Assembly: GCA_045606425.1 (NCBI GenBank)
Contig: JAZURV010000002.1
Location: forward strand, 22,706 to 86,705
DNA length: 64,000 nt
From: Candidatus Enterousia sp.
GTDB lineage: Bacteria > Pseudomonadota > Alphaproteobacteria > Rs-D84
Direction: 5' to 3'
Numbering within the stretch: the stretch's first letter is position 1; each line of letters opens with the position of its first letter. Position numbers and translations under genes: made by a program. A model generated the notes under the pieces. That model saw nothing but the letters and a program-made list of their open reading frames with translations. It searched no databases and was not told where the DNA came from. Shown here piece after piece: positions 3,655-64,000 of the stretch.

Positions 3655-4569
3655 ATGTTACTTGCACCAGAAATTTCAGATACAGCATGTGTAAATTTAA
3701 ACGATGCAATAGTATGGATTGCATTCGGAATCTTCCCCAGCAATTATTTTGAACCATTCGATAAGGGCACAGAAAAATGGCTGGATGTAATAGATTTTGA
3801 TAAATGGATCTTTAACAACAATATGTACGACAGGACCGTGTATACATCAGAAATATGTAAAAAATATAATCTGCCGAAAAACATCGTACTTGACCACATA
3901 GAAAAACACAAAGAAGAGCCGTATTTCCCAGAAGTTGTTCATTTTCAGTTAAAAAACGACAATATCGATAAAAAAGAACGCAAGAAGCTAAAAGCAGAAT
4001 TGACGGAATCTACAGAGTATTATAACCAAAAAGCCGAATTTGATAACGCGTTGAACGAACTATTTGAAGAGACATACCCAAAATTATACTCTGCCATAAA
4101 CGCTGGAAAGATACGTATTTATGGCATGAAATTTACAGAAGATACTGAGGACAAACACATTTCTCAAATTTCCCGTCAAGACTTACAATTTAAATTGTTT
4201 GACTTTAAAAATCTAACACTAAAAATCAAAAGCACAGGCGAAAACTACGGTTTTCTAATGGTTAACCTTAAAGATTTATTAACAGAATTTGAACCACAAG
4301 AAATAACAAGCGCAAAAGTTCTAAACATTGGAGGCGAATATGTGGTTTCAAAAGACAATCGTTTCTCATACAGTGGTCGCAATTCTAGTCTGGCGTCCGA
4401 ACAGATAGCATTATTGGGTATGTACGTATGCGAACTTCTCACAAAAGAACCCAAGAAACCAAACAAATATTATATTTTTTCATCTATTACATGGGCGGAA
4501 CAAAAATTTCACAAAAAAATTTCTGAAACCTCTATGCGATCGTACCTCAGGCTGTGCTTAAAAAAATAA
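3655..4569 (+). CDS. Hypothetical protein upstream of xis
   Basis: 304-aa ORF with AAGGA RBS; no recognised family. Confidence 0.6.
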   Translation: MLLAPEISDTACVNLNDAIVWIAFGIFPSNYFEPFDKGTEKWLDVIDFDKWIFNNNMYDRTVYTSEICKKYNLPKNIVLDHIEKHKEEPYFPEVVHFQLKNDNIDKKERKKLKAELTESTEYYNQKAEFDNALNELFEETYPKLYSAINAGKIRIYGMKFTEDTEDKHISQISRQDLQFKLFDFKNLTLKIKSTGENYGFLMVNLKDLLTEFEPQEITSAKVLNIGGEYVVSKDNRFSYSGRNSSLASEQIALLGMYVCELLTKEPKKPNKYYIFSSITWAEQKFHKKISETSMRSYLRLCLKK

Positions 4570-59696: not shown

Positions 59697-60656
59697 ATGT
59701 CAAATGTAGTTTTAGAATCTTTGTTAAAACCGCTGGAAGAATTTTATCGTCCTGATTTTGTCGAAGAAATCGCGATAAATCATGCCGGCGAAGTATGGAT
59801 GCGCCTGAACGGGGGCCGCGTTCCATGGGTATCGTACAATGCCGATGTTTTATCAAAACAGTACCTGGTTGATTTAATTCATACGGTTGCAAACATATAC
59901 GAACGGCCATTTGACCCGGTGCATGGGATACCTGTTGTTTATGCGACATTACCGGGGAACCATCGTTTTTCTGCAATTGCGGGTCCAAATGTACAATACG
60001 ACGAACGCGATGTAACCGGGGGCGTTGCATTAAACATACGCGGCAGTGGCGTATCAGAAACCAGTTTTGAAAATTACCACCTTAAACGCGGACAAAAATT
60101 ATTGAAAGTAAAACCGCGCGAAAATGTTCGCCCAGACGACCCGTACGAACGGTTGATGTCTGCGATAAACGACGGCAGCCCGATTTTGATATCTGGGGCA
60201 ACATCAACGGGTAAGACAACATTCCTGAATCACATGTTGACACTGATTGACCAAAACAGTCGTGTTATCACTGTCGAAGATGCACGCGAAATCCGTGTTC
60301 CGCAAAAAAACCGGGTTCATTTTGTATTATCGCGTACCGAACAAACAAACGATTTTAACTATGCACGATTACTGGATTTGGTTGTGCGTATGACACCTGA
60401 TGTTATTATTGGTGGTGAAATATCCACAGATAACGCGGCGGTATTATGGGAAATGTTGGGCACAGGGCACGACCATTTTTATACAACGATTCACGCAGAA
60501 AGTGCCGAAGCAGCCTATGCCGCATTTGCAGACCGCATTTTACACACACAACCTGCATATAACAGAACAGATTTAATTGCTGAAATGAAAAAGAAAATTC
60601 GTGTCGTGCAATTGTCGCGCGACGGGACACTGCGCGCCGTGACAGAGGTTGTATAA
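59697..60656 (+). CDS. virB11: VirB11-type secretion ATPase
   Basis: Plus-strand ATG TCA AAT GTA at 59697 (the ORF track strand label is wrong). EIAIN, SGATSTGKTT, TVEDARE, RMTPDVIIGGE, TTIHA. Confidence 0.85.
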   Translation: MSNVVLESLLKPLEEFYRPDFVEEIAINHAGEVWMRLNGGRVPWVSYNADVLSKQYLVDLIHTVANIYERPFDPVHGIPVVYATLPGNHRFSAIAGPNVQYDERDVTGGVALNIRGSGVSETSFENYHLKRGQKLLKVKPRENVRPDDPYERLMSAINDGSPILISGATSTGKTTFLNHMLTLIDQNSRVITVEDAREIRVPQKNRVHFVLSRTEQTNDFNYARLLDLVVRMTPDVIIGGEISTDNAAVLWEMLGTGHDHFYTTIHAESAEAAYAAFADRILHTQPAYNRTDLIAEMKKKIRVVQLSRDGTLRAVTEVV

Positions 60657-60691: not shown

Positions 60692-61096
60692 ATGTACACA
60701 AAAATAGAAGCAGAATTAAACGCAATCACTGATAATTTGGAATCAGAATTAAAGGCTGCCAACGCAATCGACAAAGAAGGTCGCGCGACAGACATAAAAA
60801 AATTCAATGAAATCATTGACGATAAAATCGCACAGTGTAATGCGGTATTGGCAACAACAGAACGCGACGGCGTCACAATCAACAGATACGGGGCAAACCT
60901 GGCGTTCAATCGAATTGCAATATTGGAAAAAGCGAAAAAGAACGGCACATTGAATGCAGACGCCATATGGTTTGAACATTCAGAAGAAAAAGCAATTACA
61001 GATGCAGACAAACCAAGTGCTTTCCGTGCAGGAATCAGAAGATTGTTTGAAAAAATTGGATTTAAAACAAAATCCGTACAAACAAAAAACAGATAA
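60692..61096 (+). CDS. Hypothetical protein
   Basis: 134-aa ORF with RBS and downstream terminator. Confidence 0.6.
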   Translation: MYTKIEAELNAITDNLESELKAANAIDKEGRATDIKKFNEIIDDKIAQCNAVLATTERDGVTINRYGANLAFNRIAILEKAKKNGTLNADAIWFEHSEEKAITDADKPSAFRAGIRRLFEKIGFKTKSVQTKNR

Positions 61097-61097
61097 T

Positions 61098-61129
61098 AAA
61101 AAACGCCGCCGAATGGCGGTGTTTTTTTT
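61098..61129. terminator. Bidirectional intrinsic terminator ending the RT gene
   Basis: AAAAAACGCCGCC-GAAT-GGCGGTGTTTTTTT. Confidence 0.8.
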
Positions 61130-62147
61130 ACAAATTTGTTTTCAAGAAAACAAACATCTTTGGCGTGGAATCTTTTGCGATACGAAAAAAATGATTCCGA
61201 TAATTAAATGTGCACGCCCATTTCAGCCACCCGTGTGCGGCGGCGATTTGACTGACTGCATGGTCACTGAAATCACGATGTAATATTATATTCATCAGTC
61301 TTTTTTTGATTTTCATGGCAGATTGTTTTCGTAATTTCAGATATTTTTTGAAATGTCGGTACCCAATAAAAGGAACACCACATTTTGTCTGGCGCAGAAT
61401 GGATTTAGACAACACCAGGTTCAGATTTTCTTTCACAAAGATTTCTATTTGCGTGGCTGCGTTTTTTAATTCGTCTTTGTTGTTGCCATACAGACAGAAA
61501 TCATCGCAATATCTTATATAATCGCGCCAATGCAAATGTTGTTTTACAAACATATCTAATTCGTTCAAAAACACATTGCCCAACCATTGTGATGTTAAAT
61601 TTCCAATTGGCAAATTTTTACCACCACCGACCGAAAAAATTATTTCGTGCAATATACGCAACATACGACGGTCGTGAATTTTTTTTGCGACGATGCGCAT
61701 TAAAATATCATGACTGATTGACGGGTAAAATTTACGGATATCGCATTGCAGGACATATTTGTTTCGTCGCACGAAATGCATAGTCCGACTGGACGCGGCA
61801 TGCAATCCGCGACCGGGAATACATGCGTATGAATCATAAATAAACAAACGTTGCCATATTGGCCCCAGGATATTTATAATTGCATGATGCAGAATATGGT
61901 CTGGGTACAATGGCAAATTATATATAACGCGCAGTTTTGGTTCACGAATGGTAAATGTTTTATATTGCGATGTTCGAAAACGTCCAGACATAACATCGTT
62001 GCGCAGTTTTTGTAATAATGCGTCGCGATTTTTCAAGAATTTTTGCACTGCCCGGCGGGATTTTTTACTGCGCACGGCTTTTTTTGCGGCCAAATCGAAA
62101 TTTTCCACAGATATAAATTCATCCCAAAGATTTTTATATGTTTTCAT
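61128..62147 (-). CDS. DGR reverse transcriptase
   Basis: CDIRKFYPSI, LPIGNLTSQ (DGR-type GxxxSQ), YIRYCDDF. About 340 aa with no endonuclease domain; start reassigned to MKTYKNLWD. Confidence 0.92.
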   Translation of the reverse strand: MKTYKNLWDEFISVENFDLAAKKAVRSKKSRRAVQKFLKNRDALLQKLRNDVMSGRFRTSQYKTFTIREPKLRVIYNLPLYPDHILHHAIINILGPIWQRLFIYDSYACIPGRGLHAASSRTMHFVRRNKYVLQCDIRKFYPSISHDILMRIVAKKIHDRRMLRILHEIIFSVGGGKNLPIGNLTSQWLGNVFLNELDMFVKQHLHWRDYIRYCDDFCLYGNNKDELKNAATQIEIFVKENLNLVLSKSILRQTKCGVPFIGYRHFKKYLKLRKQSAMKIKKRLMNIILHRDFSDHAVSQIAAAHGWLKWACTFNYRNHFFRIAKDSTPKMFVFLKTNL

Positions 62148-62160
62148 CAGTTTACAGTTT

Positions 62161-62472
62161 TCAAGCATTCAAATAATCAAACATATCGTCCCATTTTGGG
62201 TTTACGGATTCAATCAATTCTATTTTTCTTTTACGCGCCCATGATTTGATTTGCTTTTCACGCAATATCGCGTATTCTGGATTTTCGAAAATTTCCATAT
62301 ACACCAATTTATTTACATTATAGCGCGCGGTAAAACTGTCTTTGTTCATGTGGGTTTTATGTTCCACAGAACGGCGTGCAATATCGTTTGTAACACCGGT
62401 ATAAATCGTGCCATTTTTTCCAGATGCCATTATATAAACATAGTATTTATAAGGTTCATGGTAATATTTCAT
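62161..62472 (-). CDS. GIY-YIG nuclease
   Basis: YYVYIMASGKNGTIYTGVTNDIARR..EH...AILREKQIKSW.RK.KIELI...NPKW. Confidence 0.9.
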   Translation of the reverse strand: MKYYHEPYKYYVYIMASGKNGTIYTGVTNDIARRSVEHKTHMNKDSFTARYNVNKLVYMEIFENPEYAILREKQIKSWARKRKIELIESVNPKWDDMFDYLNA

Positions 62473-62520
62473 AAATGCAATGATAATGTTTGTTGGCAAA
62501 TAAGCAAGAATAAAAGCACA

Positions 62521-62730
62521 GTGTCATTGCGAGGAACAAAATTGGCAACCAAGCCTGCTGTTGTCAATTTTGTGACGTGGCAACCCAGGTTATCAGAGCC
62601 GTTGGCGCAGCCAACACTGATTGATAATAAAGTGTCGGCGTTGCCGACAACACTAATCATCTGGATTACCACGTCGGCGCACCAGGCTTTGCGTTGCACG
62701 CAAATTTGGCGCGCCTCCTCGTAATGACAC
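62521..62730. repeat. 210-bp palindromic element with 15-bp terminal inverted repeats
   Basis: GTGTCATTGCGAGGA (62521) / TCCTCGTAATGACAC (62716), 14/15 match; internal IR GACGTGGCAACCC / GGATTACCACGTC. Confidence 0.75.
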
Positions 62731-62748
62731 CAGCGGCGTCTGGTGGTC

Positions 62749-62882
62749 CCGCCCCAATGGGGCGGCACCAGCGGTGTCGACCACCACGGGGCGGGACACC
62801 CGCCCCATGGCCCCACCCGTACGGCCTGACGCGTTTGTTACGCGTCAGGCTGACACGGCGCGTGACACCGATGGTGTCACGC
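62749..62882. promoter_or_regulatory. GC-rich hairpin/cruciform cluster downstream of the VR (IMH-associated)
   Basis: Perfect stems at 62860-62882 (10 bp), 62824-62850 (11 bp), 62788-62806 (8 bp) and 62749-62765 (7 bp). Confidence 0.75.
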
Positions 62883-62887
62883 TGACA

Positions 62888-63340
62888 TCAATGGCGCACA
62901 GAGCCGAACAAGCCCCCCCGCAGGGCGGAGTAGTGCTGGGCGTAGTAGCCGCAGTAGAACGCACAATTCCCGGCACACTCGCCAGCCGAAGAGAACGAGC
63001 CGGCGAACACCCAAGGCGAAACCGCAGGATGTGTCATTTTACACCAACAATGTTGCCCATTTGTTTCGCCACCAACAACTGGTTCATTATTGTCATGCAA
63101 ATCCGCCACATATCCACCAATCGATTTGCCGTTCGCACTGCTTAAACACGCGCTGATTCCGCGAATCGTTCCATATGGGAATGTTGCCCACCATGTCGAA
63201 TTTGCCTGGTCGTACCCGTAATTTGTGCCATTTATCCCCGGGTCTAAAACAATTGTCGTTGCATCGTTTTTCGCGCACATCGTTGCACCAATCGATGCAG
63301 ATGTTATCATCGACATTATCAACATACTTAGTTTTTTCAT
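62888..63340 (-). CDS. DGR target: small secreted Cys-rich protein with C-terminal VR
   Basis: Signal peptide; CWCKMTHP..SPWVF...CAGNCAFYCG. 3' end is GC-rich with NNC codons and matches 63980-64000. Confidence 0.8.
   Translation of the reverse strand: MKKLSMLIMSMITSASIGATMCAKNDATTIVLDPGINGTNYGYDQANSTWWATFPYGTIRGISACLSSANGKSIGGYVADLHDNNEPVVGGETNGQHCWCKMTHPAVSPWVFAGSFSSAGECAGNCAFYCGYYAQHYSALRGGLFGSVRH
62896..63020 (-). repeat. Variable repeat (VR) with IMH
   Basis: 62896-62916 is identical to 63980-64000. The upstream boundary is estimated from the GC/NNC codon shift. Confidence 0.7.
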
Positions 63341-63393
63341 GTTTTTTCTCCTTTTTTTGTTTGTTTCTTTGCCCGCCCCACGGGGCGGAACCG

Positions 63394-63726
63394 TTATGAA
63401 AATGAAAAATATTTATCTATTTTCACAACGGTTGTATAAAACGGTATCTGTTTTTTTTCATTCGCCATCCGTATTTGGTCTATTAAAACGCTGCTGCCAG
63501 AAAACAGAATGCAAACTTCGCCATTCAATAAAAACTGCATCTGTAAACAGTCTGTTCCTTCGCGTCGTTTCGATTTTTTTACTTTGAAATCTATGACCAA
63601 TATTTCTTTGTTCAAAATTTCGTTTAAATGCTTCTTTTGCCCCGGCATCGGAATCTGGTCCTGGGCAAATATCGCGAATTTTGGACAATCTGTGCTGTTC
63701 AATGTTTTTATTTCATCCAATGTCAT
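63394..63726 (-). CDS. DGR accessory protein (beta-rich, not Avd-like)
   Basis: ILNKEILVIDFKV...LQMQF...ILFSGSSVLIDQI...PFYTTVVK; lies between the spacer RNA and the target. Confidence 0.6.
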   Translation of the reverse strand: MTLDEIKTLNSTDCPKFAIFAQDQIPMPGQKKHLNEILNKEILVIDFKVKKSKRREGTDCLQMQFLLNGEVCILFSGSSVLIDQIRMANEKKQIPFYTTVVKIDKYFSFS

Positions 63727-63747
63727 GTTTTTCCTTTTGTTTTAATT

Positions 63748-63979
63748 GAATGTCCGGGGGTTCGTCACGATACAGAACAAAACTACTGCCCCAGACATTC
63801 CCTGCGCTATTTATTTGTCATTGGCTTTCGCCGCCGAGTATCAGGTTGCACCGTCCCACCTTTGATGTAAAGGCATTCAAACAGATGCGTTTTTCGTCAC
63901 ATCTGAAAAGTGTTTAACACTTTGTCCCACAGGTTGGCCAAACTTGTTTTCTTTGACAAGTTGTACCTTTGCCAAAGGA
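63748..63979 (-). ncRNA. DGR spacer RNA (3' of TR)
   Basis: Non-coding. CCTTT-GGC-AAAGG hairpin, GGC-GAAA-GCC tetraloop, and long stem GAATGTCTGGGG..CAGTAG...CGAA..CCCCGGACATTC (63748-63800). Confidence 0.6.
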
Positions 63980-64000
63980 GCACAGAGCCGAACAAGCCCC
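63980..64000 (-). repeat. 3' end of probable template repeat (TR), continues beyond window
   Basis: 21/21 identity to the VR 3' end, diverging exactly before the target stop (IMH vs IMH*). Confidence 0.7.

Follow-up and report, generated by a model that had tools for sequence, protein, structure and literature searches.

A chromosomal diversity-generating retroelement with a cysteine-rich target family in a reduced-genome gut alphaproteobacterium

The stretch of DNA studied here, called the window throughout, comprises 64,000 nucleotides (nt) from Candidatus Enterousia sp. (assembly GCA_045606425.1, contig JAZURV010000002.1, here C2:22706-86705), whose genome of 933,348 bases in 15 contigs was assembled to a completeness of 95.2 % with 0.42 % contamination. 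At the end of the window lies a diversity-generating retroelement (DGR), the parts of which are all encoded on the minus strand: a reverse transcriptase (RT), a small target gene ending in a variable repeat (VR), an accessory open reading frame (ORF) termed ORF110, and a template repeat (TR) that mostly extends beyond position 64000. We consider it likely that this element is a functional or very recently functional chromosomal DGR. Its neighbours are PriA, LpxI and a T2SSE-type ATPase, so the chromosomal setting claimed in a preliminary description of the window was borne out. The features of the locus are as follows (aa, amino acids).

61104..61121, no strand assigned: terminator-like GC hairpin immediately 3′ of the RT gene, T runs present on both strands (consensus scan only)
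61128..62147, minus strand: DGR reverse transcriptase, counted from the Met at 62147 where relatives start; the open frame extends to 62168 (61128..62168, 346 aa)
62161..62499, minus strand: GIY-YIG nuclease-family ORF, 112 aa (PF01541)
62500..62735, minus strand: spacer delimited by 15-nt inverted arms (62521-62535 and 62716-62730) in which the GTCATTGCGAGG palindromic motif lies
62780..62895, minus strand: three GC-rich hairpins (62862-62880, 62825-62849, 62788-62806) directly 3′ of the VR, candidate target-recognition structure
62811-62824: conserved CCGTACGGGTGGGG among these GC hairpins
62888..63340, minus strand: DGR target gene, 150 aa, seven conserved Cys, signal-peptide-like N-terminus
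62896..63029, minus strand: VR, 134 nt, ending 5 nt before the stop codon
63394..63726, minus strand: ORF110, conserved DGR accessory ORF of about 108 aa (110 aa here), isoelectric point 8.8
63727..63979, minus strand: conserved structured RNA between TR and ORF110, with helices between 63748 and 63933
63980-64113 (contig C2 86685-86818), minus strand: TR, 134 nt, of which only the 3′ end (63980..64000) is inside the window

Read from 5′ to 3′, the order is thus a non-diversified target paralogue located beyond the window, the TR, a 253-nt spacer, ORF110, the target with its VR, a 388-nt GC-rich spacer, the GIY-YIG ORF, the RT and the terminator-like hairpin. A terminator scan returned one weak site at 62633-62649 and otherwise no strong terminator between the DGR parts. 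RT, ORF110, TR and TR-linked RNA are each present once in the genome. Support for the arrangement found in the window comes from a contig of 2058 nt, obtained in a run of another study: it covers 63257-63979, runs on into a TR-like stretch and has the target 5′ end, ORF110 and this stretch in the same order.

The preliminary description had pointed to 21 identical bases at 62896-62916 and 63980-64000 and had expected that, after extension past position 64000, TR and VR would differ almost only at adenines of an AAC-rich template. The 21 bases turned out to be the 3′ end of a full 134-nt repeat, over which TR and VR show 16 mismatches, every one of them at a TR adenine: the VR departs from the TR at 16 of the 25 adenines and at none of the 109 other TR positions, a distribution that chance would by no means produce. 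In the frame of the target the TR encodes PWVFNNSNSSADECARNCANNCGNNAQNNSALRGGLFGSV and the VR PWVFAGSFSSAGECAGNCAFYCGYYAQHYSALRGGLFGSV, and nine of the 14 adenine-containing TR codons are AAC. By arithmetic on the standard code, these 14 codons allow for about 1.4 × 10^14 protein variants. The signature extends to the relatives of the target. Of 458 residues found at the nine AAC-templated positions in 51 relatives, 457 are amino acids of the NNC-coded set, tyrosine being the commonest residue at seven of the nine, while K, E, Q, M and W make up 12.4 % of the residues outside these positions; the entropy amounts to 2.78 bits at the AAC-templated positions versus 0.90 bits elsewhere. Close homologues of the target share 73–92 % identity outside the 14 variable codons, and the same residue at only 1–6 of these 14. 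In metagenome contigs from four runs, which as contigs instead of reads have within-population variation outside their reach, 14 of the 15 listed variant places are TR-adenine sites, to which TR and remote VR copies map as well. TR and VR stay identical through a G-run plus 16 nt and diverge only beyond, and the GC hairpins begin 15 nt past the end of the homology.

Could the repeat past position 64000 simply be the end of a paralogous gene that gene conversion keeps alike, with no retroelement acting at all? About 17 paralogues of the target domain in the genome, and a non-diversified one right beside the TR, would provide material for such a process. It would however have to place all 16 differences at the adenines of one copy, and this copy is AAC-rich and, instead of closing a full-length target gene, belongs to an 86-aa ORF that lacks a signal-peptide-like start and aligns with no more than the C-terminal portion of the domain model. 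Furthermore, a DGR-type RT lies 1.8 kb away and the layout recurs in 40 of 67 related loci. A mere paralogue with differences free of adenine bias had been named in the preliminary description as the finding that would speak against a DGR, and the 0 of 109 changes outside adenines show the opposite. The TR/VR mismatches, the 40 of 67 loci and the NNC-coded residues already refute the gene-conversion explanation, to which we ascribe practically no probability.

The RT ORF carries IGNLTSQ, the DGR signature motif, together with YCDD at the YxDD site, as the preliminary description had stated. Its assignment to the DGR type was confirmed in comparison with solved structures, among which the best relative is 8ub7_A ('Reverse transcriptase', 1.1e-42), which we take to be the DGR RT of a Bordetella phage, whereas group II intron RTs match at 3.3e-18. 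Searches of profile collections gave RVT_1 in Pfam (5.9e-14) and phrog_1423 in PHROGs (1.2e-91); in NCBIfam, which has no DGR model, a group II model came out best and with 108.5 bits stayed under its cut-off of 300. Among 33 relatives, the consensus begins with MKTYKNLW. Using the RT as query, we found 67 related loci, mostly in metagenome-assembled genomes that come from the gut of ruminants, horses and humans and bear the label Candidatus Enterousia or Alphaproteobacteria. An adenine-biased repeat pair is present in 40 of them and a target-family ORF in 49, and the usual order in this lineage is target with VR, spacer with hairpins, TR, a structured RNA of about 250 nt, ORF110 and RT. The syntenic locus L012 reads paralogue, target, TR, ORF110, RT. 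About 0.5 kb past the 3′ end of the RT gene of the window, on the opposite strand, we observed a gene for a T2SSE/VirB11-like secretion ATPase (59697-60656).

Of the 67 loci, 54 encode a homologue of ORF110, which in 45 of these 54 ends within −6 to +49 nt of the RT start. The ORF110 family counts 354 members, all unnamed, and ORF110 gave no significant sequence match in Pfam, PHROGs, NCBIfam or PDB. Compared by hhalign with 23 Avd-like sequences it reached a probability of 0.7 %, i.e. no relation, and Avd itself (PF05635) has no match at E<=1 in the whole genome as assembled (95.2 % complete). Measured against what typifies Avd, ORF110 is small, basic and RT-adjacent in its relatives, and its sequence shows no homology to the Avd/23S rRNA IVP four-helix-bundle family. 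Because it is small, basic and located beside the RT in 45 of 54 loci, ORF110 would appear to work in the place of Avd. Avd is part of 74 % of the DGRs in the curated set of Wu et al. 2018 (PMC5758913), who also describe lineages without Avd and distinguish the accessory classes Avd, HRDC, MSL and CH1; as Avd-less lineages are known, a missing Avd leaves the membership in the DGR family intact. ORF110 could be among the minor candidates PAG1-4 of the same study, just as the target family could be among the clusters of Roux et al. 2021.

Between TR and ORF110, the spacer of about 250 nt shows conservation across 22 loci, with a fold of six helices. Compensatory changes were found for 20 of 37 pairs, counts that none of 500 shuffles reached, and 95.9 % of cells are paired versus 34–48 % with the partners slid. 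A covariance model of the 3′ half of this RNA, named R1, matches 34 of 49 loci outside its building set. Rfam gave chance-level matches only for 61000-64000 plus the TR region, none of them in the spacer or in the TR-ORF110 RNA. R1 also has a weak match at 4183-4280 of the window (20.4 bits, E 0.0029, GC 0.26), most likely by chance. In the prototype DGR, the spacer RNA primes cDNA synthesis, and judged by its position the TR-ORF110 RNA would correspond to this spacer region as its functional counterpart. On the other side of the system, the hairpins 3′ of the VR fold as DNA with −45.1 kcal/mol (z −7.66, 0 of 200 shuffles), and a triple-hairpin layout 3′ of the VR was recognised by eye in six of the 18 related loci inspected (L004, L018, L026, L034, L040, L055). 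In the mechanism we envisage, the TR would be transcribed together with the structured RNA at its 3′ side, the RT, helped by ORF110 instead of Avd, would produce adenine-mutagenised cDNA, and this cDNA would then replace the VR at sites marked by the G-run end, which resembles the initiation of mutagenic homing (IMH) site, and by the GC hairpins.

Compared with the usual order of the lineage, the target and its 3′ hairpins have moved between ORF110 and the RT in the window, along with the palindromic spacer and the GIY-YIG ORF; this rearrangement is not part of the DGR mechanism. The GIY-YIG ORF matches PF01541 (3.5e-15, 56.5 bits over a cut-off of 22.6) and is single-copy in the genome. We considered it as a DGR accessory and dropped the idea, since a relative is found in one of the 67 loci and there not beside the RT, so that it represents a lineage-specific insertion. 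The palindromic spacer probably arrived together with it. The GTCATTGCGAGG motif and its spacer are unique in the genome. At the ORF110-RT junction of L016 and L018, however, there is a similar palindromic element, and this recurrence suggests a small mobile unit targeting the junction. The GC-rich spacer was also rejected as a second TR, having no further copy in the genome and no match to any VR. At the same junction, L007 (4569-5000) and L026 (4483-5000) contain a small Cys-rich ORF with a signal-peptide-like start that by eye does not belong to the target family. The inserts in L016, L018, L007 and L026 indicate that the junction tolerates insertions.

The target is a Cys-rich protein of 150 aa that begins with MKK followed by a hydrophobic stretch, in line with the small, signal-peptide-bearing protein of the preliminary description; the likeness to a signal peptide was judged by eye. 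Its domain has no sequence match in Pfam (0 families at E<=1), NCBIfam, PHROGs or PDB, and tblastn against phages and plasmids gave no match either. Scanning 150 members of the target family returned 17 Pfam families at E<=0.05, each in at most four members and none of them a C-type lectin (CLec) family. That the target matches no CLec or immunoglobulin (Ig) family by sequence was therefore upheld across Pfam, NCBIfam, PDB and hhalign against two CLec families. A META domain (PF03724) was rejected as candidate (2 of 150 members at E<=0.05, hhalign 3.9 % over 24 columns), and the label Mtd-like given by eye to the target of L052 was dropped for want of Pfam support. In one survey only 1,286 of 2,370 DGR targets received a domain annotation (PMC11661182), so an unannotated target is not rare in itself.

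The target family comprises 50 close relatives and 648 representative clusters, none with a Pfam domain. Some members are giants with four to five copies of the domain, and one of 4750 aa additionally contains five Listeria-Bacteroides repeat stretches and an Endonuclease I domain; this context was taken as support for an extracellular role. The roughly 17 paralogues in the genome itself share the same pattern of Cys and Trp. A search of sampled genomes found the domain in 36 of 46 from the genus, in 38 of 51 from the family and in one of 29 from the rest of the order, compared to 10 of 46, 11 of 51 and 2 of 29 for the RT. The number of matches to the domain reaches 34 in one congeneric genome of 0.9 Mb. 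With the domain in 36 of 46 genomes and the RT in 10 of 46, the DGR would have been recruited onto an existing, expanded family. All 80 other sampled genomes of the order measure 0.5–1.1 Mb. One paralogue of 151 aa (L068:982-1437, minus strand, about 64276-64731 in window numbering) lies directly upstream of the TR; it retains the CWC and CxxxCxxxC pattern without a TR match, and the syntenic L012 has paralogue and target at this place. It adjoins the gene of a Cys-rich protein of 341 aa that has three internal repeats and matches no Pfam family (L068:1468-2493, minus strand, about 64762-65787).

The genome search for remote VRs that the preliminary description had proposed, carried out by blastn with the TR and counted over TR positions 11–110 (25 adenine and 75 other sites), returned at least four VR-like gene ends besides the local one. 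Each is located on another contig at the 3′ end of an ORF of the target domain family, one in a second short target paralogue and three in proteins of 312–335 aa.

C14 43787-43920, short target: 14 of 25 adenine sites changed, 4 of 75 other sites changed
C14 34318-34451, long target: 15 of 25 adenine sites changed, 0 of 75 other sites changed
C1 70598-70465, long target: 15 of 25 adenine sites changed, 0 of 75 other sites changed
C9 701-568, long target: 17 of 25 adenine sites changed, 7 of 75 other sites changed

For the copies at C14 34318 and C1 70598, the flanks carry 14–15 non-adenine differences from the TR. A central part made uniform with the TR and enclosed by diverged flanks is the expected outcome of retrohoming, which is favoured because purifying selection alone would not hold synonymous sites identical. 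The C14 43787 copy and the local VR match the TR in the last 24 nt and diverge only afterwards. A second TR or DGR RNA serving the long targets was not found in the assembly (95.2 % complete). On C13 (40416-40549, L073) we observed a VR fragment outside any target frame, the 3′ 83 nt of which are 89 % identical to the TR; it represents the remnant of a former target. A GC hairpin (CCGCCCC..GGGGCGG) at 63373-63388 separates the upstream gene from the ribosome-binding site of the target, and the same hairpin precedes the short target on C14 (L070), where it reads through as PPHGGEP in the extended ORF.

All of this could also be read as the trace of past activity in a decaying cassette, in which the rearrangement and the GIY-YIG insertion have uncoupled ORF110 from the RT. 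The ORF110-RT gap of 1,247 nt breaks the tight coupling seen in 45 of 54 relatives and is the largest of the 54 loci compared; four other loci, on the other hand, tolerate inserts of 115–519 nt at this place. The C13 fragment outside any target frame would fit decay, and the presence of the RT in only 10 of 46 congeneric genomes searched, versus 36 of 46 for the domain, shows that loss is common. Several further observations weigh against present activity. The variant places in the metagenome contigs may have their origin in the TR and the remote copies of the VR. The VRs of the three long targets differ from the TR at 7–8 non-adenine positions in their last 24 nt, which looks like the difference between IMH and IMH*, the C9 701 copy has seven non-adenine changes in its centre, and the triple GC hairpin is present only at the local VR, so that the present competence of the remote VRs as targets is uncertain. 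A relic would on the other hand hardly be expected to keep RT, ORF110, TR and structured RNA all intact and at full length relative to relatives, on one strand and with nothing but the weak site at 62633-62649 as terminator between them. Moreover, non-adenine TR-VR differences amount to 0 of 109 at the local VR and 0 of 75 in the two remote VRs with diverged flanks, and the latter argues for homing after the paralogues diverged. We thus regard a relic as unlikely and retain a functional or very recently functional DGR as the explanation of the locus.

What surface does this DGR diversify? The variable codons form five doublets with a period of 4 (residues 120/121 to 136/137), placed between the invariant Cys122, Cys126 and Cys130 and small residues. 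The conservation (entropy) of residues 117–140 peaks at a periodicity of 90 degrees, that of residues 44–66 at 165 degrees. Of 266 distinct domain instances, 255 retain all six scaffold cysteines. Among the six double losses, 100 and 130 are lost together twice, 65 and 122 twice and 98 and 126 once, so that five fit one perfect matching, for which we roughly estimate a chance of about 0.02; these joint losses suggest disulfides 65-122, 98-126 and 100-130. The seventh cysteine, C22, is lost alone in eight of 145 sequences and is accordingly not paired with the six scaffold cysteines. We lean towards the view that the diversified segment is an α-helix, with Cys122, Cys126 and Cys130 bonded to Cys65 and to the Cys98-Trp-Cys100 strand and with the five variable pairs on its free face, and that this is not a CLec arrangement. 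The helix would then be the display surface of an extracellular binding domain that has expanded in the genus, and the target may act as an antibody-like secreted binder. Two points tell against this picture: the sixth double loss (65 and 130) does not fit the matching, and the whole evidence for helix and disulfides consists of the periodicity and 11 cases of cysteine loss. The preliminary description had placed a CxxxCxxxC helix on a CWC scaffold, and two indirect observations, the 90-degree period of the VR and the pairing of 98 with 126 and 100 with 130, agree with this proposal; the non-CLec fold claimed there is plausible.

The inferred arrangement recalls the cysteine-stabilised α/β (CS-αβ) peptides, in which a CX3C helix bonded to a CXC strand is the rule (PMC5234102). 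As in defensins and scorpion toxins, the pairs 98-126 and 100-130 would follow the order first to first and second to second Cys. Here, however, CXC precedes CX3C, the domain is about 115 aa long and there is a third staple, 65-122. The resemblance is one of working principle only, with no sequence relationship.

It is possible, though in our view somewhat less likely, that the target is instead a further variant of the CLec fold. All DGR variable proteins of known structure have the CLec fold, and in a large survey Roux et al. (PMC8144416) expected uncharacterised VR domains to be new variants of it; according to Wu et al. 2018 (PMC5758913), it took fold prediction to recognise CLec2 and CLec3. 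The VR also lies C-terminally, as usual, spans about 45 aa and has a conserved Trp at its start and a conserved hydrophobic motif at its end. With hhalign, the target reached 10 % against Lcl_C, over 19 columns outside the VR, and 0.12 % against FGE-sulfatase. As a control, we compared Lcl_C with FGE-sulfatase and obtained only 3.1 %; hhalign thus misses even this kinship, and an absent profile match says nothing about the fold of the target, which leaves the negative sequence results without weight in this question. The pattern of the VR itself is harder to reconcile with a CLec domain. In the CLec targets described so far, the VR forms a β-hairpin and loops (PMC10743442), whereas the five doublets found here keep a strict period of 4 with the peak at 90 degrees and not at the strand-like 160–180. 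In addition, the three invariant Cys of the VR (i, i+4, i+8) co-vary in their loss with the CXC strand and a third Cys, and the first 100 residues appear by eye to lack the helix-like stretch that a CLec fold needs.

The mechanism by which this DGR would work is the known one, and four defining features place the element in the DGR family. With the DGR of Bordetella phage BPP-1 (mtd-avd-TR-brt) it shares the RT clade, TR-VR differences at adenines only and the VR at the 3′ end of the target. Further parallels to this prototype, as described by Wu et al. 2018 (PMC5758913), are the G-rich end and the GC inverted repeats that follow the VR on its 3′ side, and the structured RNA that follows the TR in the same way. 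The present element differs in having an unrelated 108-aa ORF instead of Avd, in being chromosomal and not phage-borne, in serving several targets, in a target without detectable Mtd/CLec similarity, and in the order TR-ORF110-target-GIY-YIG-RT. Closer in setting are the chromosomal DGRs of Treponema denticola (TvpA) and Legionella (LdtA), which have exported or surface targets and more than one VR-bearing gene (Wu et al. 2018). Their targets are however CLec proteins of the FGE-sulfatase or DUF1566 type and their DGRs carry avd plus HRDC or MSL, while the target family described here matches neither of the two CLec families by profile and Avd is missing.

For ORF110, the nearest parallel lies in two archaeal viruses, ANMV-1 (KP703175) and Caudoviricetes sp. 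vir525 (BK063673), which encode a homologue (41 % identity) directly beside the RT, there however downstream of it. The RT of vir525 is also the closest relative of our RT in the phage collection, with 44.6 % identity. A search of the ANMV-1 locus with R1 gave no match. Paul et al. 2015 (PMC4372165) modelled the ANMV-1 target AdtA as an Mtd-like CLec protein and drew an 'Avd' ORF in this virus; in the same account, ORFs of nanoarchaeal DGRs were judged by isoelectric point and size. The points in which the present DGR differs from known ones are hence its accessory protein, its lineage-specific RNA, its target family and its host, the Rs-D84/Enterousia lineage, and possibly the display fold. 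This lineage is described as having genomes below 1 Mb and neither a tricarboxylic acid cycle nor respiration, in a paper that makes no mention of retroelements (PMC12306168), and our literature search found no paper linking DGRs with Enterousia.

As a whole, we give an even chance to the view that the DGRs of reduced-genome gut Alphaproteobacteria combine a third target scaffold besides CLec and Ig, an all-β extracellular domain bearing a triple-stapled helix with five pairs of hypervariable residues on display, with ORF110 as non-Avd accessory, a lineage-specific RNA and one TR for several surface proteins. If true, a helix-display scaffold with three disulfides would mean that massive adenine mutagenesis is tolerated by another architecture, and would provide a very small natural binder scaffold of about 115 aa. 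The replacement of Avd by an unrelated ORF that is also RT-adjacent in two archaeal viruses would make the role of Avd for the RT testable by comparison. For the organism itself, the devotion of one TR to at least five surface-protein genes in a bacterium of about 0.9 Mb points to attachment to a partner or host as the trait under fastest selection.

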